The notes below the pieces were generated by a model, which saw nothing but the letters and a program-made list of their open reading frames with translations, was not told the origin of the DNA and ran no database searches. The position numbers and the translations under genes are program-made. DNA of 64,000 bases, taken from the IMG/VR virus record IMGVR_UViG_3300014204_013734, positions 64,001 to 128,000 of that record; one strand, given 5' to 3'. Positions 4,099 through 22,477 of the stretch are shown here, piece by piece. The number at the start of each line of letters is the position of its first letter. Within the stretch, counting starts at the first letter, position 1. This DNA comes from a virus (lineage: Duplodnaviria > Caudoviricetes).

Positions 4099-5052
4099 CT
4101 AATCCGACCTTTCCCCAACCTTGTTGTTGAAGTCCCGGCATACGTCCAGGCAGTTACCGCGGCAAATCGGGTCGGAAAAGCAGTTGTGGTTCTTCGCCCA
4201 ATTTACCCGTTCGGCACGCATATCAGGACCAACCTTCCCGATAGGTTTCCCACCTTCCCGCAAATAGATGATGCACGGGTAATGAGAATCCCCGACCACG
4301 GCACTGTCATCCATGACCAAGTGGCAACGATCAGAATCCCGTTCCGTCAACCCCCGGACACTTTGCCCAGATTTCATGTTGTTGATCCGGTAATTCAGGA
4401 TCCTATGTTTGCCCATGCCACGAAGGATTTCCGGCGGAAGTGCTTTTCCGAATTGGGCGGCCGGAATGACCCGAATGTCGTGAACACCCAAAGAATCCGC
4501 GAAGGACACGATTTTCGTGATTTCCGCAATGTTGTCTTCGGTCAAGACTACACCAACGGTGGTGTAGCATCTTTCCGACAAGAAGCGGATGTTGCCCGCC
4601 ACTTTGTCAAAGTGACAGTCTTCCAACCCGGCCATTTTGTTGGCGAAAGACGCGCAACAGGCATCCAACGAAATGGAGAAGTCGTTGGCGCCGGCGGCAA
4701 GCAGTTCTTCGTACACCTGCCGGTCCGCAGACCCATTGGAAGAAATAGCGATACGTTTCACCCCGCGAACCTTACACAAGGCCACGAGCCTTTTCAGGTG
4801 CGGATACAGGGTAGGTTCTCCCCCCGAAAAACGAACGTTCTGCAGACCATCGTTGATCCACAGATTCAAGATTTCCAAAGCCGAATCCAGGGGCAAGTGC
4901 CCCTTCAATCCTTTCACCCCACGGCAATAAGGACAACGAAAATTACACGCCGATGTGACCAGAAGTTCGCATCGACACATCGGAGACGTGCCGTTGATGC
5001 TTTTCGCCCTGTCATCCGACAGTGTGTAGAAGCCGATGTCTTCCAGTTTCAT
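4099..5052 (-). CDS. radical SAM protein
   Basis: CNFRCPYC (CxxxCxxC), FSGGEP, SSNG, SISLD and a Cys-rich C-terminus; ATG overlaps the rtcB stop (TAATG). Confidence 0.85.
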   Translation of the reverse strand: MKLEDIGFYTLSDDRAKSINGTSPMCRCELLVTSACNFRCPYCRGVKGLKGHLPLDSALEILNLWINDGLQNVRFSGGEPTLYPHLKRLVALCKVRGVKRIAISSNGSADRQVYEELLAAGANDFSISLDACCASFANKMAGLEDCHFDKVAGNIRFLSERCYTTVGVVLTEDNIAEITKIVSFADSLGVHDIRVIPAAQFGKALPPEILRGMGKHRILNYRINNMKSGQSVRGLTERDSDRCHLVMDDSAVVGDSHYPCIIYLREGGKPIGKVGPDMRAERVNWAKNHNCFSDPICRGNCLDVCRDFNNKVGERSD

Positions 5053-7496
5053 TAGTCCATCCCCTTGATGTTGGCCACAGGACGCATACGCCGAGCAATC
5101 TTGGCGATCCCTTCCCCTTCCAGGATGCGAAGAACTGCGTCCAGGTCCTTGTAGACGTGTCCACATTCGTCAAGAGGAGTCTGCCGGCTGTTCATCAGGA
5201 TTCCCTTGACGACAGTCCCGTCCTTGCAAACGACCTTGGCATTGTTCATTTCCGCATCAATATCACCCTGCAAGGCAGCAAATTCACGCTTGGCCTGACC
5301 ACGGCCAAGCAGACGCCCGGACCCGTGGTTGACCGAACAACCGGACTGGCAGGCCTTGTCAGATGGAAACAGGATTGCCGCCCCGGTCAACATGGAACCC
5401 GGAATAAGGACCGGATGACCGGTCTTTTCCCACATCGTGCCGTACAAAGCCGGATGCCCAGCCGGGAATGCCCGCGTAGACCCCTTGCGGTGGACGAAGC
5501 CACGGACCAACGACCCATCCGGGAGGTAGATTTCCTCTTCCTGGATCAGGTTATGACTGATTTCGTAAAACGTCTTGGAGGTCTTTCCGAAGACCATTTC
5601 GGTAGCCTCGGAAATGCCGTTGGCAATGACATGCCGGTTCACGATGGCGAAGTTGGCCGCACTGTTGTGGTGCGCCCAAAACTGCTTTCCGAGGGGTTCG
5701 TCAATATGCAACCAAGCGTCTTCCCGACGGTTCTTGGCCAAACCCCGAACTTCGGCACCGGCATACATGAAATGTTCCGCCGTCTGCCAACCGTAACCCC
5801 GGCTTCCGGTATGGATCATGACCCACACTGAGGAATCTTCCGGATCAATCTGCAATTCCACGTAGTGGTTTCCGGCTCCGAGGGAACCGAGTTGCCCGAC
5901 CATCTTGTTTCGGGCGCGTTCAACCCTATTCACGTCAAAGTAAGCAGGGTCAACCGGAAGGGACTTCCGTTCGCAGACATCCTTGGACAAACCCAAGGCG
6001 AAGGCACCTTCCGTCAGGACTTCCATCAGGAAGTTGTAGCTGAAAGAAGGCATCTTGTCGGGACGGTTTGACCCGATACCCGTAGCAACACGCCGGGAAA
6101 CTTCGTCAATCCACTGACGACGCTTTGCCGGATCGGCCACGTCGGCGGCAATCAACCCTTCAATCTTGGCGTGGAGAATTCCACAATTGTGAACGAAAAC
6201 ACCCGCATCCAATGCAAAATTACCGTACTTTTCAACCGTTAAGCAGTACACATCTGCAGTTTCCGTCAGCCACCGGACCGCAACAACCTTGTGATTATTG
6301 TGTTTGTGATAAATGTGCTCTTTAAGGCCCCATTTGCTCTTGTAGGAGCGGCCACAATGAGGGCAGAGAAATTCTGTTACTTTTTCTTTGTGTTGCGTTC
6401 TCTTTTTTCCTCTGTTCAGTAAACCGACTTCTCTGGATTTCTGGCGACCTACCTCACTTTGGTTATATTTGATAAGGAACTCACGGCCCCTCAGACCTGC
6501 TTTTGCATCAGATTCCTTGTATTTTCCTTTTTCTCTTGCCCGTTTGTGGTTTTCAACTATCATTTCATCCCTTCGGGCACAAAACTTCGGGTCTTTATGA
6601 AGTCTTTTCAAGTTCTCTGAAGCCATCTTAGAATACATTTCGGGATACAGCTTATGGGCCTTAGCCCCCCAAATCTCCCCTCTGGCAAGGCGCTCTTTCG
6701 CTGTGTCCGAATGTAGTTTCCAGTGTTCATGTTCATCCATTTCAACAAGGAAACGGGGATCATCATTGTCTTTGGAAGGATTGGGGTTCTGTGTATTGAA
6801 AATATCGTGGTGTATGATACTAGGCCATTTTGGAACATATCCGTGCAGCTCTCGGAAAGAAACTTTATACATTCGTTCTATGGTGTTATCCATAGGATGT
6901 TGGACATAAGAACGGTGCAAAGGCATGAGCGAATCCCCTGGTTTGAGGCACTCCGCTTTTTTGTAGCTTCCATCCCGAAGCATATATTCATGGTCAGGGG
7001 TATTTCGAATGCACTTCCCATTATTCAGTTCCACTTCTACGATGGAAGCAGCCCTTTTTGTTCTTCGTGGGCTGTGGGCTAAACCCGCAGTAACTTTTCC
7101 TTCGGGGGTCATGGAATAGGTGTAAAAAGTTCCGCCTTCCCCATAAAGACGGACAAGTTCTTCAAATGACAAAGTTCTGCCATCTACCAAGGCAACTTTA
7201 GTATCTCCCGTGAAACATGACAGATCGTAGCCCGCCGCTGCCTGTATCAACGTCCCGTCCGTAACGATGACGGATCCGATAGGGACACCATAGCCGAAAT
7301 GGGTGTCCGGCATCAGGAACACATGAGTCACACCCGGATAGGATGCCGCATTCGCAGCCTGTCGCCACACGTCTTCCTCAGAAGAAGCAAACAAGTCTTC
7401 GTTCAGGAATGCTTTGACTTCACATCCCATTTGCGCAACACGCGGCATGCTCAACGTATTGGGTCCGGTTCGAATCACAGTTTCTTTGAATGACAT
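5052..7496 (-). CDS. rtcB: RtcB RNA ligase with one intein
   Basis: LMPDTHFGYGVPIG, GYDLS[intein]CG, QLGSLGAGNHYVELQ, IHTGSRG, ISHN, VHRKGSTRA, IPGSM, SVNHGSGR, YKD, IKG. Confidence 0.93.
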   Translation of the reverse strand: MSFKETVIRTGPNTLSMPRVAQMGCEVKAFLNEDLFASSEEDVWRQAANAASYPGVTHVFLMPDTHFGYGVPIGSVIVTDGTLIQAAAGYDLSCFTGDTKVALVDGRTLSFEELVRLYGEGGTFYTYSMTPEGKVTAGLAHSPRRTKRAASIVEVELNNGKCIRNTPDHEYMLRDGSYKKAECLKPGDSLMPLHRSYVQHPMDNTIERMYKVSFRELHGYVPKWPSIIHHDIFNTQNPNPSKDNDDPRFLVEMDEHEHWKLHSDTAKERLARGEIWGAKAHKLYPEMYSKMASENLKRLHKDPKFCARRDEMIVENHKRAREKGKYKESDAKAGLRGREFLIKYNQSEVGRQKSREVGLLNRGKKRTQHKEKVTEFLCPHCGRSYKSKWGLKEHIYHKHNNHKVVAVRWLTETADVYCLTVEKYGNFALDAGVFVHNCGILHAKIEGLIAADVADPAKRRQWIDEVSRRVATGIGSNRPDKMPSFSYNFLMEVLTEGAFALGLSKDVCERKSLPVDPAYFDVNRVERARNKMVGQLGSLGAGNHYVELQIDPEDSSVWVMIHTGSRGYGWQTAEHFMYAGAEVRGLAKNRREDAWLHIDEPLGKQFWAHHNSAANFAIVNRHVIANGISEATEMVFGKTSKTFYEISHNLIQEEEIYLPDGSLVRGFVHRKGSTRAFPAGHPALYGTMWEKTGHPVLIPGSMLTGAAILFPSDKACQSGCSVNHGSGRLLGRGQAKREFAALQGDIDAEMNNAKVVCKDGTVVKGILMNSRQTPLDECGHVYKDLDAVLRILEGEGIAKIARRMRPVANIKGMD
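6186..7217 (-). mobile_element. intein in RtcB (344 aa) with HNH-like endonuclease and C2H2 zinc finger
   Basis: Starts CFTGDTKV; block B TPDH; ends VYCLTVEKYGNFALDAGVFVHN followed by C+1. Internal IIHHD...DNDDPRFL..M...EH..LH and CPHCGRSYKSKWGLKEHIYHKH. Confidence 0.9.
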
Positions 7497-7530
7497 GGTA
7501 CGTTTCTCCTTCCCCAAGACTACCGGAAAC
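7494..7530 (-). repeat. duplicated 37-bp promoter/RBS cassette, copy 1 (before rtcB)
   Basis: Minus strand GTTTCCGGTAGTCTTGGGGAAGGAGAAACGTACCATG; near-identical copy at 8012-8048. Confidence 0.85.
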
Positions 7531-7534
7531 TCTG

Positions 7535-8014
7535 TCAAACCAAGCCGTGTTGCCGCAGCAGCAGAATACCCAAGAACATCAGCAAGATATGCAGCGTGTT
7601 GTCCGTCACCGTGTAAACGATGGCAGCGAACGCCGTAATGACGGATGGGATATGCAGGTCTTCAGGAATCAGAAGGCAAGGTCCGTTTTTGACCCGAATA
7701 TGGTCAAGGGCGGCGTCCCAATCCTTCATCACATTCCTGCCCCCAATCAAGTCTAACCACTTCTGACCAAGGCCCCAACGGTCAATCGGGAAGTGGGACA
7801 AGAAAACCATTCCCCACATCCACGGATTCATCACGGTAGTCGTAACAAGGACGACGGCTACCGTATAGGCTACGCAATGGATCAAGCAAATCCCGAACCC
7901 CTTCCAGGACCGCACTGATTTCCCAAGGGCCATCCATACGGGTTGGAAGAGGTAGTCCCCGACGAAATGCCCGAGAATGGCTAGGATCAGCAAGGATTCG
8001 GATTCACACGTCAT
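7535..8014 (-). CDS. DUF3307-like membrane protein
   Basis: LAILGHFVGDYLFQ...K...HCVAYT...LSHFPID...DNTLH pattern with hydrophobic helices. Confidence 0.75.
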   Translation of the reverse strand: MTCESESLLILAILGHFVGDYLFQPVWMALGKSVRSWKGFGICLIHCVAYTVAVVLVTTTVMNPWMWGMVFLSHFPIDRWGLGQKWLDLIGGRNVMKDWDAALDHIRVKNGPCLLIPEDLHIPSVITAFAAIVYTVTDNTLHILLMFLGILLLRQHGLV

Positions 8015-8109: not shown

Positions 8110-8852
8110 GCCTTAGGCTTTCCCGTTAAATAGCAGGGAAGGTGGAAAATCTCCGCCTGTCCAGAAGGTTCCGCTGGACGAACCCAGTATCCTTGTTCGC
8201 CCTTTGCAACCATCTGCTTACAGACGGGGCATTGTACGGATTGAACACACGTAATAGTTCGGTGGTTTTCGTCTTCTACCAAAGTTCGGGTCACGGGCTT
8301 CTTGGGCTTCGGGTTGTCTTTTTCCTTATCCTTGGCAAGAAGTTCTTGCGACAAGGCTTCCATGTTGTTTTGCCGTTTGGCTAAACACGAAACGGCAAAA
8401 CAACACTTCCTGCAAACCGGACTTTGTTCTGCCAAGAAACCAAAGCACTGCGTGTTTTCCCTAGCTAGTTCCCGGATATACGGATCCGAGTGATAGCTCT
8501 CCCCGTCAGTGTCTGTGCTGTTTTCTTGCAGCGGGCTGGGAGGAACGGAAATGGGAACGGAAATGGAAGCCAACCTGTTAGCTTCCGTCAAACCGGCAGT
8601 CGTTAACGTCCATTGCCCTTTAGCCAGCCGGTTTGCATAACCTTCCGTCACCAATTCCTTGAAAGCCCACTGAACCCATTTCTCAACCTGCGGTTTCCCA
8701 CTGGCCTCGTTCAGGCCATACTGGTCCAGCTCGATGCCCATCAACTCACAAACCTTTACGCACACCTTTTCCATAGCAATTCCAATGCCCGTCCCCTGCG
8801 TCAGGAAAAGCAAAGCCTTCAGCAGGGGGTCCTTGAAATCCTTGGCTGTCAT
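8106..8852 (-). CDS. winged-helix (Mrr N-terminal-like) protein with Cys-rich motifs
   Basis: DFKDPLLKAL...VEKWVQWAFKEL..EGY...KGQWTLT..G, followed by CxxC and CxxC...HxxC. Confidence 0.55.
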   Translation of the reverse strand: MTAKDFKDPLLKALLFLTQGTGIGIAMEKVCVKVCELMGIELDQYGLNEASGKPQVEKWVQWAFKELVTEGYANRLAKGQWTLTTAGLTEANRLASISVPISVPPSPLQENSTDTDGESYHSDPYIRELARENTQCFGFLAEQSPVCRKCCFAVSCLAKRQNNMEALSQELLAKDKEKDNPKPKKPVTRTLVEDENHRTITCVQSVQCPVCKQMVAKGEQGYWVRPAEPSGQAEIFHLPCYLTGKPKA

Positions 8853-15103: not shown

Positions 15104-15139
15104 AAGAAGGCCCCGACACAATCATGTCGGGGCCTTCTT
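15104..15139. terminator. hairpin terminator between convergent units
   Basis: Perfect 15-bp inverted repeat AAGAAGGCCCCGACA-caatca-TGTCGGGGCCTTCTT. Confidence 0.8.
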
Positions 15140-15142
15140 ATT

Positions 15143-15208
15143 CCTAAGCAATTAGCCCTATTAGGTTACCGTCCGGCACCAACGTGGAGGTTGCTTAGGT
15201 TGTCGGAT
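15143..15208 (-). ncRNA. HDV-like (theta-type) ribozyme 1, 3' of tRNA-Ser(CGA)
   Basis: P1 AUCCGAC/GCCGGAC (two A-C mismatches), P2 CCUAAGCA/UGCUUAGG, P3 ACC/GGU, L3 UCCACGUU, P1.1 GG, short P4, J4/2 GCUAAU. Confidence 0.8.
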
Positions 15209-15297
15209 CGGAAGGAGAGGGAATTGAACCCTCAAGGGAGTGTTAGTCCTCGTCCGGTTTCGAACCGGGTGCAGTCAGCCAATCTGCTTGTCCTTCC
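15209..15297 (-). tRNA. tRNA-Ser(CGA), no encoded CCA
   Basis: Acceptor GGAAGGA/UCCUUCC + G73; anticodon loop UU-CGA-AA; long variable arm. Confidence 0.9.
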
Positions 15298-15302
15298 AAA
15301 AA

Positions 15303-15379
15303 TGGTACGTCCGGCCAGGCTCGAACTGGCGATCCCCGGCTTCGGAGGCCGGTGCTCTATCCATCTGAGCTACGGACGC
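15303..15379 (-). tRNA. tRNA-Arg(CCG)
   Basis: CCGGC-CU-CCG-AA-GCCGG; T-loop UUCGAGC; ends ACCA. Confidence 0.93.
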
Positions 15380-15870
15380 GGAAATTTTGCCATCAAGGCT
15401 TTGGCCACGGGGTCTGGCACAAACTGCTGAAAGGGTCCCCCAAGGGCGGCAAGTTCCTTGACCATGGACGACGAAACTTCGGACACGGCCGGATCCGTAA
15501 CCAGCATGACCGTTTCAATGGAGGGCTTAATCCGTCGGTTGATAGAAGCCAAAGAAAACTCGACGGGAAAATCCTGAACGGGACGAAGCCCGCGGATCAT
15601 GGCACAAGCCCCAAGTTCGGCGGCAAAGTCAACCAGAAGCTTTCCTTCAGGTAAAGCTTCCAGACGCACCTTGGATGAAAACCCAACCGGGAGTGATTGT
15701 TGGATCAAGTCCAACCTTTCTTCCAAAGTGAAGGTCGCTTTCTTGGCGGAATTCTGTGCAATCACTACTACCAACCTATCAAAAAGTTCCGCTGCCCTGC
15801 TGATGATGTCCAAGTGGCCATTCGTGATCGGGTCAAAAGACCCTGCATAAATTGCAACACGTTCGGTCAT
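15370..15870 (-). CDS. coaD: phosphopantetheine adenylyltransferase
   Basis: AIYAGSFDPITNGHLDII, FTLEERL, IRGLR..DF..E, ETV, VSSSMVKELA. Confidence 0.93.
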   Translation of the reverse strand: MTERVAIYAGSFDPITNGHLDIISRAAELFDRLVVVIAQNSAKKATFTLEERLDLIQQSLPVGFSSKVRLEALPEGKLLVDFAAELGACAMIRGLRPVQDFPVEFSLASINRRIKPSIETVMLVTDPAVSEVSSSMVKELAALGGPFQQFVPDPVAKALMAKFPRP

Positions 15871-16022
15871 GAAGTGCCTCCTTGAAAGGACATACCCTTT
15901 TTCGGGGTAACTTGTTGAAGATGGCTTCATCTTCTTGTCTAAACTACCCGAAGCCCTCCAGTTCCAAGCCGTAAAATTCATGGTTTGGAAAACCATGACC
16001 CTTTTTTGAGGAGCTTTTGTCC

Positions 16023-17246
16023 ATGGCTTTGAAAAAGATCCCGGCCATACCCGCTGATTCCGCTTTGACCAAAGCCCTTAATTTGAAGGAAGCATCAGGA
16101 AAGGAAAAATGGGACTTTTCTTTCATTGATCTATTCGCGGGTATCGGAGGGTTCCGACTGGCCTTGGAATCCCTCGGCGGAAACTGCGTGTTTTCGTCGG
16201 AATGGGACAAGCAATCCCAGGACACCTACGAAAGGAACCACGGGGAACGACCTCAAGGGGACATCACGAAAATCGACCCGTTTTCCATCCCCGACCACGA
16301 CATCCTGACGGGCGGTTTCCCGTGCCAGACATTCTCCCTTGCCGGAATAACCAGATTGTCAAGTTTGGGCAGGGAACATGGCATGAGGGACACAACGAAG
16401 GGAACCTTATTTGGGTACACGAAGGAAATCATTACCGCAAAGCGTCCGAAGATGTTCATCCTAGAAAACGTCAAGAACCTAAAATTCCATGACGAAGGCA
16501 GGACCTTCAGGACCATCGTGGAACACCTACAGGGCCTGGACTATGAAGTGTCCTCTTCAATCCAAACTAGCGTCTGGTGGGTCCCGCAACACCGGGAACG
16601 TATGTTTATCGTAGGGTTTGATCTCCAACGGTTTGATCCGAAATCGGTTCAGGAAAACTGGGCCTTCCCCGACCCGCCGAAATTGGTAGATGGTCGATTA
16701 CCTGTGATGAAGGATATTATGGAAAAGAATCCGGATGAACGCTACCGGTTGACTGATCTTCAGTGGAGCACTCTTCAGAATCGTTTCAAGGGACACCAGA
16801 AAGGATCCTCAAAGCCCTGGGGATTCAGCTACGATTTGAATTCCGAAGAAACAATTGCCAAGACATTGATGGCAGACATTAAAGGAGGGTCCGCCCTGCT
16901 CATTCAAGACGACCCAACCAAAAATCCACGGAGACCAACCCCAAGAGAATGCGCCCGATTGATGGGATTTCCTGATACTTTTCAAACATTGCAAGCACAA
17001 AGACTTGTACAGAAACAGTTCGGAAACGCCGTCGTTCCCCCTCTGATCCGCCACATTGCTACGGCAATGCTGCGTGCTACAGACAACTTTCTGCCTAACC
17101 TCAATCCGATGCCAAAGGACACCATCCTAAACGTGCAAGTTGTAGCCCCGGAAAAGAAGACTGGAAAGAATAGGAAAATAGTACAAAAAGAACCGGAAGT
17201 CTGTTGTGGGTTGGAACAGTTGTTCAATGAAGATCAGAAAACCTGA
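16023..17246 (+). CDS. C5-cytosine DNA methyltransferase
   Basis: FIDLFAGIGGF, GDI, GGFPCQ, ENV, PQHRER, RECARLMGFP, QFGNAVV. Confidence 0.93.
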   Translation: MALKKIPAIPADSALTKALNLKEASGKEKWDFSFIDLFAGIGGFRLALESLGGNCVFSSEWDKQSQDTYERNHGERPQGDITKIDPFSIPDHDILTGGFPCQTFSLAGITRLSSLGREHGMRDTTKGTLFGYTKEIITAKRPKMFILENVKNLKFHDEGRTFRTIVEHLQGLDYEVSSSIQTSVWWVPQHRERMFIVGFDLQRFDPKSVQENWAFPDPPKLVDGRLPVMKDIMEKNPDERYRLTDLQWSTLQNRFKGHQKGSSKPWGFSYDLNSEETIAKTLMADIKGGSALLIQDDPTKNPRRPTPRECARLMGFPDTFQTLQAQRLVQKQFGNAVVPPLIRHIATAMLRATDNFLPNLNPMPKDTILNVQVVAPEKKTGKNRKIVQKEPEVCCGLEQLFNEDQKT

Positions 17247-17504
17247 CAACAGGAAATCAAACCTTCCGTCTCCGATAAAAAATGGGCATACTAGTTGTAT
17301 GCCCGGATTCACCGCTAATGGAAAGCAACTTCCGGAGATAGGTGCTGTGTTTTGGTGAGGTAAACACGGCACTTCATCCGAACCGTCCACCAGCCCTTCT
17401 GCCGCTACTGTGATAAACACAGAAGGTGCAGAATTAACCCTAGTGTAACCGCGGTTCTTCTTCAAGTCAAGAAGAAAATAAACGTTATCAAGGGTCGGGG
17501 TCAT
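17127..17504 (-). CDS. hypothetical protein
   Basis: Good RBS (AAGGAGG) and GGTAG motif upstream; 3' end overlaps the methyltransferase tail. Confidence 0.4.
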   Translation of the reverse strand: MTPTLDNVYFLLDLKKNRGYTRVNSAPSVFITVAAEGLVDGSDEVPCLPHQNTAPISGSCFPLAVNPGIQLVCPFFIGDGRFDFLLSGFLIFIEQLFQPTTDFRFFLYYFPILSSLLFRGYNLHV

Positions 17505-17559
17505 GAAACCCTCCTTCCCCATAACTACCGGGAAAGAAGGGTTTCCAAGCCGTTTGAAA

Positions 17560-17635
17560 TGGAGCTGACGGCGGTGATTGAAACCGCAACTTTCGCCCTA
17601 CCGAAGCGACGCTCTACCAACTGAGCTACGTCAGC
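17560..17635 (-). tRNA. tRNA-Thr(GGT), C33
   Basis: Acceptor GCUGACG/CGUCAGC + UCCA; anticodon loop UC-GGU-AG. Confidence 0.88.
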
Positions 17636-17641
17636 AAAAAA

Positions 17642-17716
17642 TGGAGCCTCGGCAGGAAATTGAATCCTGTTCTGCGGTTTACAGGACCGCCGCATCACCG
17701 ACAATGCTTCCGAGGC
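17642..17716 (-). tRNA. tRNA-Thr(TGT), C33
   Basis: Acceptor GCCUCGG/CCGAGGC + UCCA; GCGGU-CC-UGU-AA-ACCGC. Confidence 0.85.
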
Positions 17717-17720
17717 ATTT

Positions 17721-17803
17721 TCCAAGTAATTGGCCCTGCCCCTTTTCGGGGGGAATGCAGGTTGACATCCGACACCTCGTGAAGGTTACTTGGATCGTCG
17801 GAC
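17721..17803 (-). ncRNA. HDV-like (theta-type) ribozyme 2, 3' of tRNA-Thr(CGT)
   Basis: P1 GUCCGAC/GUCGGAU (G1-U wobble), P2 UCCAAGUA/UACUUGGA, P3 ACC/GGU, L3 UUCACGA, P4 CCUGC..GCAGG, J4/2 GCCAAU. Confidence 0.88.
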
Positions 17804-17875
17804 AGCTAGCAGAAAGACTTGAACTTTCAACCTTCGGTTTACGGAACCGTTGCTCTACCATTGAGCTATGCTAGC
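17804..17875 (-). tRNA. tRNA-Thr(CGT), C33, no encoded CCA
   Basis: Acceptor GCUAGCA/UGCUAGC + U73; anticodon loop UC-CGU-AA. Confidence 0.88.
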
Positions 17876-17880
17876 AAAAA

Positions 17881-17964
17881 TGGTACGAGGGGAGGAAATT
17901 GAATCCTCAAGGGTTTCCCCACACGGGTTTAAACCGTGCGCGTTTCCCATTCCGCCACCCTCGC
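17881..17964 (-). tRNA. tRNA-Leu(TAA)
   Basis: CACGG-UU-UAA-AC-CCGUG; long variable arm; ends ACCA. Confidence 0.9.
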
Positions 17965-17970
17965 ATAAAA

Positions 17971-18762
17971 TCAATGCAGAAAAGGTTTCCCAATCAAATC
18001 CGCCGGACCTTCCAGTTGGGGGACCTGATTGAAGTGGTTTTTCTTCAAGGCAGCCCGAACTTCTGTGATCACCTGGGAGGTTGGTTTTTCCAACCCGTCT
18101 GGCCGAAGCAGGGCATCCAGAAGGAATCGGGTCAAAGCCCCGTTTGGACGCTTCTTGAACACGGCATCCGCTGCGGTTTGGTCTGCCCGGCAACCTGAAA
18201 TCAAGGCAATGTTAGGGACATCCAAGGGATTCTTTTCCAACCCTTTGGATCGGACACCTTCAAAACGCCACCTGATGTCAAGCGGGGGAATGAGACGGCG
18301 CGGTTTGGACCCGCCAAATCCGGCCATGTCCCGGTCCAACCCTCCGCTGTGGCAGGAATCGGAAATCCACCATGCGGCAACACCAGGAGGGACCCGTTTG
18401 AAGATGGTGTTGAATTCCTTGTCCCGAATCATGTTGGAATCGGACCAATCAAAATTTTGACAACATACCACTTCGTCAAGTCCGTCAACTTCACCTTTCT
18501 TGTCCCGGGTCGGAACTTGAGCTCCATGTCCGCTGTACTGGAATAGGATGCGGTCACCAGGCTTCAACCCGTCAACAAGCCAGAAGAGTCGGTTCTTGAT
18601 TGTCGTAGCAGTGGCCCTGGAATCCGTCAAGAGACGGACAGCCGCCGGATCAAAGCCGCATTTCCCTGTGATGAACAACGCCATATCTTCAACATCGTTG
18701 AGACATCCGGCGAGCGGGGCTTCAGGATACGAATTTATTCCAACCAAGAGTGCCTTGTCCAT
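17971..18762 (-). CDS. metacaspase / caspase-family protease (peptidase C14)
   Basis: ALLVGINSY...LAGCLND, YSGHG (His), SDSCHSG (Cys), SGCRADQTAAD, GALT, QVPQL. Confidence 0.92.
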   Translation of the reverse strand: MDKALLVGINSYPEAPLAGCLNDVEDMALFITGKCGFDPAAVRLLTDSRATATTIKNRLFWLVDGLKPGDRILFQYSGHGAQVPTRDKKGEVDGLDEVVCCQNFDWSDSNMIRDKEFNTIFKRVPPGVAAWWISDSCHSGGLDRDMAGFGGSKPRRLIPPLDIRWRFEGVRSKGLEKNPLDVPNIALISGCRADQTAADAVFKKRPNGALTRFLLDALLRPDGLEKPTSQVITEVRAALKKNHFNQVPQLEGPADLIGKPFLH

Positions 18763-18822
18763 GGAAACCTCCTTTTACGGAGATGGGGTGATACATCCCA
18801 ATCCTGTAAAGGGGTTTCCATG
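18760..18822 (-). promoter_or_regulatory. hairpin occluding the metacaspase RBS and start codon
   Basis: mRNA CAUGGAAACCCCUUUAC pairs with GUAAAAGGAGGUUUCCAUG, which contains the SD and AUG. Confidence 0.7.
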
Positions 18823-18847
18823 AAAGGACAACCGGGGGATTGAAAAA

Positions 18848-18932
18848 TGGTGAAGGTGGGGGTGGTCGAAACCCCATGCCTTTCGGCAAAAGCTTTTGAG
18901 ACTTCCGCGTCTACCAGTTGCGCCACACCTTC
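18848..18932 (-). tRNA. tRNA-Leu(CAA)
   Basis: Anticodon loop CU-CAA-AA; variable arm GCC-GAAA-GGC; ends ACCA. Confidence 0.9.
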
Positions 18933-18939
18933 AGAAAAA

Positions 18940-19027
18940 TGGTGGACGGGGAGAGATTCGAACTCTCTCACCCACAAGGAGAACGGATTTACAGTCCGCT
19001 GCGCCTCACCATCTGCGCCGCCCGTCC
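18940..19027 (-). tRNA. tRNA-Tyr(GTA)
   Basis: GCGGA-CU-GUA-AA-UCCGU; long variable arm; ends ACCA. Confidence 0.92.
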
Positions 19028-19159
19028 ATGTATAGACTACCAGAATGGAATCCATCCCAAGCCGGAAAACCTTCGTTAGGAGAAATCTGGTGTACTAGGC
19101 CATCTTTGGAAAACCAATTTTCCGTTTATTGAACCCTTCCGATAAAAGGAGGTGTCCTT

Positions 19160-19837
19160 ATGATCCCACTGTTTACTCAAGAAGAATTTGATTCTGTGAA
19201 GTCCCGGCAAAAGTTACCCCTTCAATGTAAGCATTGTGGGAAAACCTTCCACAGAACCAAACATGATATTCAAATTGGTAACATAAGAAGAGGAACTATG
19301 GATTTTTGCAGCATTTCTTGTACATCCCGATATCATGCCGCTGGTCATCGTCTTAGTTTGACTTGTGAACAGTGTGGAAACCATTTCAGCAAGATTTTAT
19401 CTCAAGTCAAGGTAACAAAACATCATTTCTGTTCCAAATCCTGTGCGGCCAAGTATCGGAATTCTCACAAAACTACAGGTTTCCGTAGGTCAAAGTTAGA
19501 AGCTTGGTTGGAAACCCAACTAACATCCCTTCATCCTGAATTAGAATTTCATTTCAACAGGAAAGACACTATTGATTCCGAATTGGATATTTACATCCCT
19601 TCCCTTAAGTTGGCTTTTGAACTAAATGGGATTTTCCACTTTGAACCTATTTTTGGAACCCACAAGTTGAATCAAATCCAATCCAACGATCAAAGGAAAT
19701 TTTTGGCTTGCGCTGAAAGAGGAATCAGCCTTTGTATTTTGGATGTTTCTCACATCAAGTATTTTAAAGATAGGACTTCCAAACCCTTCCTTGACATTAT
19801 TGAACGTATTATTTCCCAAGTAAGGGCAGGACAGTAA
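19160..19837 (+). CDS. free-standing putative homing endonuclease (Zn-ribbon repeats + Vsr/DUF559-like PD-(D/E)XK domain), copy 1
   Basis: CKHCGK..FCSISC, CEQCG..FCSKSC, ELDIYIPSLKLAFELNGIFH, NDQRK..C...GI.L. Confidence 0.75.
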   Translation: MIPLFTQEEFDSVKSRQKLPLQCKHCGKTFHRTKHDIQIGNIRRGTMDFCSISCTSRYHAAGHRLSLTCEQCGNHFSKILSQVKVTKHHFCSKSCAAKYRNSHKTTGFRRSKLEAWLETQLTSLHPELEFHFNRKDTIDSELDIYIPSLKLAFELNGIFHFEPIFGTHKLNQIQSNDQRKFLACAERGISLCILDVSHIKYFKDRTSKPFLDIIERIISQVRAGQ

Positions 19838-19840
19838 AAA

Positions 19841-19916
19841 TGGTGCCTGAAGCTAGGATCGAACTAGCCACCTCGTGATTTTCAGTCACGCGCTCTACCA
19901 ACTGAGCTATCCAGGC
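19841..19916 (-). tRNA. tRNA-Phe(GAA)
   Basis: CGUGA-CU-GAA-AA-UCACG; ends ACCA. Confidence 0.93.
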
Positions 19917-19928
19917 ATTGTCCATTTT

Positions 19929-21005
19929 TCACTTCTTCCGTTTGACAGGTTTTTTGGCAGGTTTTTTGGTCCCTGATGTCTTGCCCTTAACCTGCTTCCG
20001 GGAAGATTCTTCAATGTGAAGGGCCTTGATTTTCGGTCCCAGTTCTTGAAGGATTTCTCTGGTCTTGCCTTCCTTTGTATAGGTTTCAGCAAGTGATGCC
20101 AACACCTTGTTCATTGGTCCGGTCGTGACGGGCATTGGGACGTCAAGAGTGACAGTCATCGTCTTCCCTTTCTTGTGTATCGTCAGACCTTCCAATTTCA
20201 CCGTTCCATCGCGGTCAAAGTGGTAAAGCATGGCCAAATCAAAGAAGCCCTCGGAGCCTTCCGCTCCGCCCGTTTGGCGAAGCCGATCTATCACCTTTGC
20301 CAGATTGTCTTTCAACCAGGATGCCGTTTCCGCATCAAGGTCTTCAAACTTCTGGCTTTTGTTGTAAGCTTCCATAACCGCATGGTGAATGTTTTTGGGA
20401 ACCCTTTCACCCCCATCTTGGTCGCCACTTCGTGCGGCTTCTCCCTCTTCTTTCCAACCCCCTTCTTCGTCCCTTTCCCCGTTGTCATAAAGGAAGGCTT
20501 CCCACAAGAAACGGTTGACCAAACCCATGAAATAGTCCCTGGGTGGAAAGTCCTTGAGGGCCTTAAATCCGCCAGATACATTGGATTCATCAAAATCCGC
20601 AATTTGTGTCCGTTTTTCAGGTGGAACCGCCCACGAAGTCTCGCTCCATTCCATATCGTCCAGATCACCCAAATAGTTCTGATAGTCCCGATCATTCAGC
20701 AGATCGTCCAGATCATCGTCCAGATCATTCTGATCAGTCTGCAAAGAATTATGTTGGTCTTCGGACGGAATAGGTTCCAGAATTGTGGGATGGGGACCCT
20801 TATCCGCATCCATGCCGAACGCTTTGAAAACCGCCTGCATTGTAGCCGGGTCTTCCTGATCACCCCAAAGGTTGCAAAGATCAATTTCGGTTGGGGTCTC
20901 CTGATCTTCTTTCGATTCTTGGGGTTCCTTTACAGGTTCAACTTTCTTCGGTTCCAGGTTGAAGTAGGAAACAACCCGATGCCAGATGTTCTTGATTTTG
21001 GTCAT
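19929..21005 (-). CDS. hypothetical protein (acidic core, basic C-terminal tail)
   Basis: 358-aa ORF with strong RBS AAAGGAGGT and upstream GGGGTATACT. Confidence 0.75.
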   Translation of the reverse strand: MTKIKNIWHRVVSYFNLEPKKVEPVKEPQESKEDQETPTEIDLCNLWGDQEDPATMQAVFKAFGMDADKGPHPTILEPIPSEDQHNSLQTDQNDLDDDLDDLLNDRDYQNYLGDLDDMEWSETSWAVPPEKRTQIADFDESNVSGGFKALKDFPPRDYFMGLVNRFLWEAFLYDNGERDEEGGWKEEGEAARSGDQDGGERVPKNIHHAVMEAYNKSQKFEDLDAETASWLKDNLAKVIDRLRQTGGAEGSEGFFDLAMLYHFDRDGTVKLEGLTIHKKGKTMTVTLDVPMPVTTGPMNKVLASLAETYTKEGKTREILQELGPKIKALHIEESSRKQVKGKTSGTKKPAKKPVKRKK

Positions 21006-21053
21006 AGTAGTGACCTCCTTTCCTGGAACAGTATACCCCGGAAACTAAAAAAC

Positions 21054-21128
21054 TGGCAGATGCCGGAGGAATCGGACCTCCCAGACCGTCGGATTTGGAG
21101 TCCAACGCGCTTTCCCAGAGCGGCATCC
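21054..21128 (-). tRNA. tRNA-Trp(CCA), atypical D/T arms
   Basis: GUUGGA-CU-CCA-AA-UCCGAC; acceptor GGAUGCC/GGCAUCU + GCCA; T-loop UCCGAUU. Confidence 0.8.
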
Positions 21129-21137
21129 GTGAAAAAT

Positions 21138-21160
21138 TGGCGGAAAAGGTGGGGATTGAA
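21138..21160 (-). pseudogene. 3' remnant of a tRNA (probably Ser-type)
   Basis: UUCAAUC-CCCAC-CUUUUCC-G-CCA (T-loop, T-stem 3' strand, acceptor 3' strand, G73, CCA); the 5' part is replaced by the endonuclease cassette. Confidence 0.7.
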
Positions 21161-21198
21161 TTTTTGATTTATGACTCCTTCCGATAGGAGGTGCCCCT

Positions 21199-21888
21199 AT
21201 GATTCCCTTGTTTACGCAAGAAGAATTTGAATCCACAAAATCCCGGCAATTACTGCCCCTGAGGTGTAAGCATTGTGGGAAAACTTTTCACAGCGAAAAA
21301 TGTGATATCCAAAGAGGACTTCTGAAACACAGTTCAAAAACCAAAGATTTTTGTAGTCTCTCCTGTTTGGGGGAACACCGATCCATAGGGCGTCGTCTTA
21401 GCTTGACTTGTGAACAGTGTGGAAAACCTGTCAGTAAAAGGCCATCTGAAATTAAGCAATCTAAGCATTATTTCTGTTCCAGTTCGTGTTCCGCAAAATA
21501 CCATAATTCCAGAAAACATACAGGTTACCGGAGATCAAAATTGGAAGTTTGGCTGGAAACCCAACTAATTTCCCTTCATCCTGATTTGGAAATCCATTTT
21601 AACCGAAAGGATACCATTAATTCCGAACTGGATATTTTTATCCCTTCCTTAAAACTGGCTTTTGAACTAAATGGAATCTTTCATTATGAACCCATCTTTG
21701 GAGCTAAACAATTTGGAAGAATTCAATCCAACGACAACCGGAAAATTCTTGCCTGTGCTGAAAAAGAAATTAGCCTTTGTATTTTGGATGTTTCTCACAT
21801 CAAGTATTTTAAAGATAGGACTTCTAAACCCTTCTTAGATATCATTGAACGGATTATTTCCCAAGCGATTAGCCCTGAAACCCCTTGA
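21199..21888 (+). CDS. free-standing putative homing endonuclease, copy 2
   Basis: Close paralogue of 19160-19837 (MIPLFTQEEF...ILDVSHIKYFKDRTSKPFLDIIERIISQ). Confidence 0.75.
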   Translation: MIPLFTQEEFESTKSRQLLPLRCKHCGKTFHSEKCDIQRGLLKHSSKTKDFCSLSCLGEHRSIGRRLSLTCEQCGKPVSKRPSEIKQSKHYFCSSSCSAKYHNSRKHTGYRRSKLEVWLETQLISLHPDLEIHFNRKDTINSELDIFIPSLKLAFELNGIFHYEPIFGAKQFGRIQSNDNRKILACAEKEISLCILDVSHIKYFKDRTSKPFLDIIERIISQAISPETP

Positions 21889-21946
21889 TAAGGGTTCTCA
21901 GGTTACCATCCGGTACCAACGTGGAGGTTGCTTAGGTTTGCCGGAT
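21860..21946 (-). ncRNA. HDV-like (theta-type) ribozyme 3, 3' of tRNA-Ser(GGA)
   Basis: P1 AUCCGG/CCGGAU, P2 CCUAAGC/GCUUGGG, P3 ACC/GGU, L3 UCCACGUU, GG, long P4, J4/2 GCUAAU. Confidence 0.85.
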
Positions 21947-22033
21947 CGGAAGGAGTGGGAATTCAACCCACGGACCCGAAAGGGTCACCCGCTTTCCAGA
22001 CGGGCGCGACGAAGCAGCATTCGCCTCCCTTCC
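21947..22033 (-). tRNA. tRNA-Ser(GGA), no encoded CCA
   Basis: CCCGU-CU-GGA-AA-GCGGG; long variable arm; acceptor GGAAGGG/UCCUUCC + G73. Confidence 0.85.
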
Positions 22034-22039
22034 ACAAAA

Positions 22040-22118
22040 TGGCGGGGCATGTTGCGGGTACTGCCCCCGCCCCTCCCCCAATCGCGAATCGGGGGCATGC
22101 TCTATACACTATCACCCC
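22040..22118 (-). ncRNA. non-canonical tRNA-like RNA with encoded CCA
   Basis: GGGG.../CCCC-G-CCA ends; D-like arm GUGU-AUAGA-GCAU; 7-bp arm CCCCCGA-UUCGCGA-UUGGGGG; T-like arm GCGGG-GGCAGUA-CCCGC. Confidence 0.6.
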
Positions 22119-22127
22119 ATAAAAGAT

Positions 22128-22214
22128 TGGTGCTGGAAGCCGAATTTGAATCGGCACGGACTTTCGTCCACAAGGTCCTTAGCCTTGCGCGGCTGCCAGT
22201 TACGCCATTCCAGC
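22128..22214 (-). tRNA. tRNA-Leu(AAG)
   Basis: CAAGG-CU-AAG-GA-CCUUG; variable arm GGAC-GAAA-GUCC; ends ACCA. Confidence 0.9.
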
Positions 22215-22222
22215 AAAAAAAT

Positions 22223-22307
22223 TGGCGGAAGAACAGGAAGTCGAATCCTGACAGGCATTGCCTGGACGGGTTAGCAACCCGCTCCGCTACCATTACGGCA
22301 TTCTTCC
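22223..22307 (-). tRNA. tRNA-Ser(GCT)
   Basis: GCGGG-UU-GCU-AA-CCCGU; long variable arm; ends GCCA. Confidence 0.92.
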
Positions 22308-22321
22308 ATTTTTGATTGTTT

Positions 22322-22394
22322 TCCAAGCGATTAGCCCTGTATAAGCTACAGGTTGACATCCGGCACTTCGTGAAAGTTGCTTGGGTCGTCGGAT
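22322..22394 (-). ncRNA. HDV-like (theta-type) ribozyme 4, 3' of tRNA-Leu(CAG)
   Basis: P1 AUCCGAC/GCCGGAU, P2 CCAAGC/GCUUGG, P3 ACU/AGU (covaries with ACC/GGU in the other copies), L3 UUCACGA, P4 CCUGUA..UACAGG, J4/2 GCUAAU. Confidence 0.85.
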
Positions 22395-22477
22395 TGGGAA
22401 CGGAGGGGGTCGAACCCTCACGGCTGTTAACCACTGGTTCCTGAAACCAGTGCGGCTCCCAGTTACGCCACGTTCCC
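22395..22477 (-). tRNA. tRNA-Leu(CAG), no encoded CCA
   Basis: Acceptor GGGAACG/CGUUCCC + A73; CUGGU-UU-CAG-GA-ACCAG. Confidence 0.9.

Follow-up and report, generated by a model that had tools for sequence, protein, structure and literature searches.

We analysed a 64,000-nt stretch (the window) of the Caudoviricetes record IMGVR_UViG_3300014204_013734, which corresponds to bases 64001-128000 of the 381,280-bp virus record (50.6% GC); the phage is described as a standard-code, jumbo phage (381-kb genome). Between positions 15208 and 22477 of the window (window numbering is used unless genome coordinates are indicated) ARAGORN predicts 14 tRNA genes, all on the minus strand, and four of these are joined at their 3' end to an element resembling the self-cleaving ribozyme of hepatitis delta virus (HDV). 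When the tRNA ends are read directly in the sequence, 10 of the 14 terminate with an encoded CCA, in most cases ahead of a T run, while the remaining four stop at the discriminator base and lack a CCA: tRNA-Ser(CGA) at G15209, tRNA-Thr(CGT) at T17804, tRNA-Ser(GGA) at G21947 and tRNA-Leu(CAG) at A22395. ARAGORN places one spurious extra base on each end of both Ser tRNAs, and the terminal “CCA” of tRNA-Leu(CAG) represents C71-C72-A73 rather than a CCA tail.

The four elements (R1 to R4) are likewise encoded on the minus strand. R1 (66 nt, 15143-15208) has a P4 helix of 3 bp, begins with A15208 as position +1 directly after tRNA-Ser(CGA) (15209-15297, with the acceptor stem GGAAGGA/TCCTTCC as read from the sequence) and has its putative catalytic cytosine at C15155. 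R2 (83 nt, 17721-17803) follows tRNA-Thr(CGT) (17804-17875; the Rfam tRNA match also stops at 17804) and begins with G17803, which is part of a G.U pair, the putative catalytic cytosine being C17733. R3 (87 nt, 21860-21946), which has a long P4, starts with A21946 after tRNA-Ser(GGA) (21947-22033), and R4 (72 nt, 22323-22394) starts with A22394 after tRNA-Leu(CAG) (22395-22477), their putative catalytic residues being C21872 and C22334, respectively. A strong intrinsic terminator (15104-15139, minus strand, a 16-bp stem and a T run) lies 3 nt past the end of R1, while R2 ends 4 nt before the next tRNA, tRNA-Thr(TGT), and R4 ends 15 nt before tRNA-Ser(GCT). This arrangement suggests that the ribozymes would set a tRNA apart from whatever follows it in one long transcript.

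The 12 copies of the element in the genome were used to build a covariance model, which was run on the whole 381-kb genome and matched exactly these 12 (66.8-84.8 bits, E-values from 1e-14 to 2e-19), with no further match anywhere in the genome at E<=1. Every match begins at +1 after a tRNA discriminator (offset 0), those in the window at 15208, 17803, 21946 and 22394 (73.7, 77.9, 84.6 and 76.6 bits for R1, R2, R3 and R4). The eight further fusions are found in a second array at 49-59 kb of the genome and involve the tRNAs for His, Asp, Pro(GGG), Met, Ala(TGC), Arg(TCT), Gly(TCC) and Cys. The linked tRNA-Asp(GTC), the only one in the genome (L004:1490-1563, genome 49489-49562), is non-canonical (C33, an odd T-loop) and was missed by ARAGORN, though found by Rfam (38.9 bits); it brings the genome-wide count to 36 tRNAs, the other 35 being called by ARAGORN. 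Additional tRNAs obtained with relaxed ARAGORN settings were all implausible and were rejected.

The presence of the element and the absence of an encoded CCA thus coincide completely. In the window, four CCA-less tRNAs carry the element and ten CCA-encoding tRNAs do not, a perfect split that has a probability of 1/1001 by chance; in the genome, it is 12 versus 24 with zero exceptions (1/C(36,12), approximately 8e-10). We also wrote a descriptor of the HDV-like fold and applied it to tRNA and transfer-messenger RNA (tmRNA) ends; in this genome it recovered 10 of the 11 copies linked to ARAGORN tRNAs and none at the 24 CCA-encoding tRNAs. A first-pass annotation of the window had reported HDV-like ribozymes fused to the discriminators of exactly these four tRNAs and a complete partition from the ten others, and had named a covariance or motif search as a check. 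The covariance model places all four at the claimed starts, and the partition held in the genome as well as in the window; that annotation was thus right for the four copies it covered but saw only four of 12, and it missed the homing-endonuclease cassette described below.

The elements share the layout P1 (7 bp), J1/2, P2, P3 (3 bp), an L3 loop of the type TYCACGN, P3', P1', the two P1.1 bases, YAA, a P4 hairpin that varies in length among copies, GCYAAN and P2'. When the 12 copies are aligned according to the double pseudoknot, 92.2% of the cells are paired and 17 of 25 pairs have changed on both sides, as opposed to 26-42% of paired cells in a control where the 3' partners were slid; none of 500 shuffles reached the observed pairing values. 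Adding three copies from another metagenome (L121 and L122, see below) leaves the picture unaltered, with 91.5% of the cells paired, compensatory changes in 16 of 24 pairs and paired cells amounting to 95% in P1, 90% in P2, 100% in P3 and 98% in P4. At the first P1.1 pair, 14 of these 15 copies have C-G and the His copy has U-A, a compensatory change, while the second pair is formed in only three of 15, as in CPEB3-type ribozymes. All five helices (P1, P1.1, P2, P3, P4) of a nested HDV double pseudoknot in canonical order are therefore supported. In the J4/2 segment (G-C-Y-A-A) the G, the C, which is the putative catalytic residue, and both A's are invariant in 15 of 15 copies.

These data bear out the earlier description of an HDV-like double pseudoknot with a P4 and a J4/2 cytosine, and the covariation that had been noted for P2, P3 and P4 extends to P1; the three window copies said to begin with A are R1, R3 and R4. 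A proposed division into two subtypes, defined by L3 and P1.1, describes the four window copies well but breaks down for the eight others, which mix these states (e.g. UCCACGAC with GU, or UCUCCGU with AU), and a strict two-subtype scheme was dropped.

From fold and placement we infer, with a probability of roughly 80%, that the elements are self-cleaving ribozymes of the HDV family, transcribed as 3' trailers of CCA-less phage tRNAs. While a polycistronic tRNA transcript is being synthesised, each element would fold into the nested double pseudoknot, and the J4/2 cytosine together with Mg2+ would cleave the bond between discriminator base 73 and position +1 of the ribozyme. The expected products are a tRNA whose 3' end is a 2',3'-cyclic phosphate and a ribozyme that starts with a 5'-OH. 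Before CCA can be added, the cyclic phosphate would have to be opened or removed, and the likely agents of these steps are phage-encoded 2H-phosphoesterase and CCA-adding-type modules or host enzymes. The CCA-encoding tRNAs would mature by the ordinary route, for which no ribozyme is needed.

Candidates for such phage modules reside at the N-terminus of a 3098-aa protein encoded outside the window (L127:144-9440, plus strand; genome 146143-155439). The open reading frame starts with a 2H-phosphoesterase-like module, continues with a CCA/PcnB-type nucleotidyltransferase head (a PolyA_pol/CCA-adding-type head domain at residues 205-468) and later contains a type IB topoisomerase core; the peptide RVASRF occurs between the 2H and nucleotidyltransferase modules. 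The 2H module spans about residues 20-190 and has two HxTx motifs (HTTF at H46 and HATI at H137) and a weak match to TIGR02258, RNA 2',3'-cyclic phosphodiesterase (E 1e-4). Profile searches of the genome gave neither a 2_5_RNA_ligase2 (PF13563) nor a LigT Pfam match, and a search with AAA_33 returned a single 13.7-bit match only. Two RNA ligases are encoded as well. One is of the DRB0094 type; the other, an accessory gene with a possible role here, is an intein-containing RtcB of 828 aa (5052-7538, minus strand), in which an insert of about 340 residues bearing N- and C-terminal intein splicing motifs separates RtcB profile positions 1-50 from 49-426. The RtcB family joins 2',3'-cyclic-phosphate and 5'-OH ends. 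A route from the cyclic phosphate to CCA by means of phage enzymes is plausible, and the side-by-side position of the 2H-phosphoesterase and CCA-adding-type modules suggests that the phage has a pathway of its own that would turn a cyclic-phosphate end into a chargeable tRNA.

Several observations weigh against tRNA processing by self-cleavage. The G.U wobble at the cleavage-site pair, which in HDV ribozymes positions the catalytic metal, is missing from most copies: the +1 pair is A-U in seven of the 15, G-C in four, G.U in three (in the window, only in R2) and A.C in one. In the window, P1 is interrupted by an A.C or C.A mismatch in R1, R3 and R4 but not in R2, and R1 has two A.C mismatches. 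No ribozyme family of Rfam matches the elements at its gathering score; with laxer settings, matches are obtained at the exact coordinates but stay well below the cut-offs, with 17.8 bits for RF01787 (drz-agam-1, at R1; cut-off 37) and 24.6 bits for RF00094 (HDV_ribozyme; cut-off 50). The healing route, too, has a gap. A 2'-phosphate is the usual product of 2H enzymes, and the genome search for Tpt1 (PF01885) gave no match; the route is therefore incomplete. Finally, the 2H module could have a different function, for instance the degradation of immune-signalling nucleotides.

Two alternative explanations were considered. The ribozymes might be active but act as timers or gates, poor +1 pairs and P1 mismatches slowing some of the copies and the cyclic-phosphate tRNA being unusable until phage enzymes heal it, so that a private, staged tRNA pool results. 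P1 quality and the +1 pair do vary among the copies, 2H and CCA-type modules are united within one protein, and RtcB is present. Such variation could, however, be neutral drift among recently copied elements, and cyclic-phosphate ends may be healed by HD-domain CCA-adding enzymes of the host unaided. We regard this explanation as unlikely. Less probable still is that the trailers are conserved structures which no longer cleave or never did, with the HDV appearance being a relic and the tRNA ends produced by RNases of host or phage (e.g. RNase Z). The non-wobble +1 pairs, the A.C mismatches in P1 and the Rfam scores below threshold would fit. A relic, however, should lose its core first, and here the catalytic C and the core nucleotides of L3 and J4/2 do not vary among the 15 copies, in contrast to the helices, which show compensatory changes; moreover, no copy, in this genome or in other phages, starts anywhere but at +1.

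If the elements are indeed self-cleaving ribozymes, their closest functional counterparts are the theta ribozymes. As described by Kienbeck et al. 2024 (PMC10879173), these are HDV-like ribozymes of minimal size that occur in gut Caudoviricetes and have their cut site at the 3' ends of tRNAs; self-cleavage was demonstrated in vitro for four examples. Of the tRNAs linked to theta ribozymes, 20% are suppressors and 80% are sense tRNAs, CCA is encoded in only 4.5%, and about 41% of the phage genomes with tRNA-theta fusions use code 11; genes for tRNA nucleotidyltransferase and DRB0094-family RNA ligase are strongly enriched in theta phages (PMC10879173). The authors consider ribozyme-made tRNA 3' ends to be “currently limited” to mammalian-gut Caudoviricetes, the theta phages being ones that infect Bacteroidota or Bacillota (PMC10879173).

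The elements resemble theta ribozymes in having the cut site directly at the tRNA 3' end (offset 0 here, the theta criterion being +/-5 nt), in being linked to tRNAs without CCA (12/12 compared with 95.5% in PMC10879173) and of many isotypes, in the J4/2 motif CYAA, and in the company of CCA-adding-family and DRB0094-type ligase genes in the phage genome. Among the theta supplement sequences compared, the P3 of R1 is identical to that of the most common one (theta-0001), and the L3 of R1, TCCACGTT, differs from the theta loop TCCACGT by one inserted base; none of the 12 genome copies is itself present among these sequences (PMC10879173). The differences are substantial. The elements keep a true, covarying P4 of 3-13 bp, as the first-pass annotation had pointed out, and the stretch from P1.1 to the catalytic C measures 13-35 nt, whereas the supplement sequences considered have a linker of 5-8 nt in place of P4 (6 nt in the commonest). 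Position +1 is an A in seven of the 12 copies and mostly forms a Watson-Crick pair, whereas a G stands at the start of every theta sequence seen in that set. Twelve copies serve one third of the tRNAs of a 381-kb standard-code phage, and neither an endonuclease cassette nor a link to tmRNA is described in PMC10879173.

The elements would therefore work like theta ribozymes yet fall outside the theta motif, and are best classified as predicted full-size HDV-like ribozymes. With HDV, CPEB3 and other members of this group (RF00094, RF01787 and relatives) they share the nested double pseudoknot with a P4 and the catalytic C in J4/2, and with CPEB3 also an L3 of the UUCACGN type. They differ by Rfam scores below gathering, by the mostly absent cleavage-site G.U and by their proposed task, the formation of tRNA 3' ends instead of the processing of a viral genome, an intron or a retrotransposon. 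The association with CCA-less tRNAs is already known at population level (PMC10879173), as are links to sense tRNAs and to standard-code phages, so that the occurrence of such tRNAs in a standard-code phage, which the first-pass annotation had emphasised, is real but normal for theta ribozymes. The P4 and the non-G start are new. The phage and its relatives are also set apart by cleavage-site pairs that are mostly not wobbles, by the number of tRNAs served, by an endonuclease cassette and by one copy behind a tmRNA. Ribozyme-made tRNA 3' ends would thus extend to full-size, P4-bearing HDV-like ribozymes that perform the same job and that the published theta motif cannot find, in this case for 12 of the 36 tRNAs of a single phage, and the cleavage-site pairs that break the G.U rule represent a natural series for testing the role of the +1 pair.

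The 3' part of R3 overlaps a protein-coding gene on the opposite strand. HEG2 (21199-21888, plus strand, antisense to the tRNAs) encodes a homing-endonuclease-like protein of 229 aa with two zf-FCS/TRASH fingers (Pfam zf-FCS, E 3e-8) and a C-terminal domain; it matches the PHROG families phrog_559 (“HNH endonuclease”, E 1e-14) and phrog_3339/9084 (“homing endonuclease”), and its 3' end is antisense to the last 29 nt of R3. Just beyond the start of HEG2, and 699 nt past R3, lies what appears to be the displaced old 3' end of tRNA-Ser(GGA) (21138-21160, minus strand): a 20-nt copy extending from the T-loop to the discriminator (15 of 20 positions identical to the live tail), then CCA and a T run. 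Neither ARAGORN nor Rfam detects a complete tRNA body around it. A paralog, HEG1 (19160-19837, plus strand, 225 aa), is 73.5% identical to HEG2; zinc fingers are found in both, as are matches to PHROG HNH and homing endonuclease families with E-values down to 1e-16. Only 3 nt separate the end of HEG1 from the CCA of tRNA-Phe, and the last codons of HEG1 are antisense to the decayed 3' part of a ribozyme (about 19808-19834). In the second array, the ribozyme of tRNA-Arg(TCT) is followed by a 25-codon fragment of the endonuclease C-terminus, and several other copies retain the first bases of the endonuclease flank. Pfam searches with the C-terminal halves of the endonucleases returned nothing even at E-values up to 10, a nuclease function being indicated by the PHROG family names alone; a PD-(D/E)xK or DUF559-like motif, considered for this region, is unsupported.

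The same arrangement recurs in a metagenome from the Joint Genome Institute (JGI), which holds three close copies of the ribozyme, two in L122 and one in L121. Those in L122 are located at +1 after tRNA-Gly(CCC) and after tRNA-Ile(GAT), and that in L121 at +1 after a tmRNA gene (Rfam 125.5 bits). Each of the three is followed by an antisense homolog of the endonuclease, either full length or truncated, and each homolog by a displaced tail of the same tRNA or tmRNA with its CCA (0-1 mismatch in 12 nt). The tmRNA locus (L121:469-894) consists of a phage-type tmRNA with the tag ANVPQRLAA and without CCA, the ribozyme at +1, the antisense endonuclease gene and the displaced tmRNA tail with CCA. 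An endonuclease gene together with a duplicated 3' portion of the tRNA or tmRNA flanking the insert is thus found for R3 and for three cassettes in L121 and L122. Displaced tails with CCA past the endonuclease gene occur in this genome, in L121, twice in L122 and in L139.

Homologs of the endonuclease were found at 66 IMG/VR loci, nearly all inside tRNA arrays and on the strand opposite to the tRNAs. Applied to other loci, our descriptor detects the HDV-like fold at 13 of 394 tRNA/tmRNA ends, as compared to none in a control with reversed downstream sequences. Nine descriptor matches fall within endonuclease loci, each of them at the tRNA that adjoins the endonuclease gene on its 3' side, and one of these is a suppressor tRNA. 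Covariance-model matches of 20-32 bits in the endonuclease loci L177, L189, L146 and L148 were left out of the counts, as ARAGORN and Rfam both show no tRNA immediately upstream of them.

From this layout we infer that ribozyme and antisense homing-endonuclease gene together form a cassette, which would insert into tRNA and tmRNA genes at their 3' ends. It would supply a new, CCA-less tRNA tail plus the ribozyme, so that the tRNA still matures, while the old tail with its CCA is pushed downstream; most of the 12 copies would since have lost the endonuclease gene. Replacement of the tRNA tail by a CCA-less copy and a ribozyme is the best explanation we can offer for the perfect CCA partition. 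The cassette would represent a new type of mobile element that homes into tRNA and tmRNA 3' ends, its ribozyme keeping the invaded gene functional just as self-splicing introns and inteins do, and the ribozymes would subsequently have been kept as the normal means of making 3' ends, in conjunction with the healing and CCA-adding modules of the phage. We consider the odds on a mobile element of this kind to be even. Two observations sit badly with the cassette explanation: an intact endonuclease gene adjoins only one of the 12 ribozyme copies, and HEG1 stands behind a CCA-bearing tRNA without a working ribozyme. Displaced tails were not found within 1.5-2.5 kb of the other 11 copies of the genome.

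Elements of this proposal have precedents. The free-standing homing endonuclease SegB of phage T4 is also encoded within a tRNA cluster, and homing endonucleases of introns and inteins likewise depend on a self-processing step which, as with the RNA of an intron, makes the insertion harmless to the host gene. The helper proposed here is a self-cleaving ribozyme placed after the gene and not a splicing intron. Unlike in these systems, the endonuclease gene runs antisense and shares its 3' end with that of the ribozyme, and insertion would duplicate the 3' portion of the tRNA and drop the CCA. In the literature we found no paper that ties homing endonucleases to HDV-like ribozymes at phage tRNAs. 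The antisense endonuclease, the displaced CCA tails and the tmRNA target in a relative provide a concrete and testable origin for the ribozymes and the CCA-less tRNAs, and, if correct, the mobile-element interpretation would explain how many of the tRNA-linked HDV-like and theta ribozymes arose and why their tRNAs are devoid of CCA.

Apart from this record, neither GenBank phages nor IMG/VR yielded a close copy in megablast and pattern searches: a megablast of the region against GenBank phages gave no match, and a strict DNA pattern gave none in IMG/VR. A medium pattern gave two matches in IMG/VR, one due to chance and the other (L092, 12041-12177) a short-P4 element, theta-like or HDV-like, directly after a tRNA-Trp, which is weak but real (17.5 bits with the covariance model). 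L092 belongs to a separate 373-kb IMG/VR phage that carries an amber-suppressor tRNA. With a loose pattern, at least 115 stretches were obtained from IMG/VR; no real copy was among the 80 scored by the covariance model, the lone match reaching 16.8 bits (E 0.35), and these candidates were rejected.

Some spacers within the tRNA arrays have ends that resemble those of a tRNA. A GC-rich spacer of 93 nt between tRNA-Leu(AAG) and tRNA-Ser(GGA) (22035-22127, minus strand) folds into multiple hairpins (-35 kcal/mol) and terminates in ...CCCCGCCA and a T run; this resembles a tRNA-like 3' end, yet no tRNA model matches. Two tRNA-sized spacers with acceptor-like ends, one of them ending in ...CAGGGTTACCA, occur in the second array (genome 56227-56303 and 56552-56641, about 8228-8304 and 8553-8642 of L004), and ARAGORN calls neither as a tRNA. 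The tRNA genes of the window are also interspersed with protein-coding genes, namely those for a CoaD-type pantetheine-phosphate adenylyltransferase (15370-15996, minus strand; TIGR01510, E 4.5e-49), a caspase-family peptidase C14 (17971-18762, minus strand) and a C5 cytosine DNA methylase (16017-17246, plus strand).

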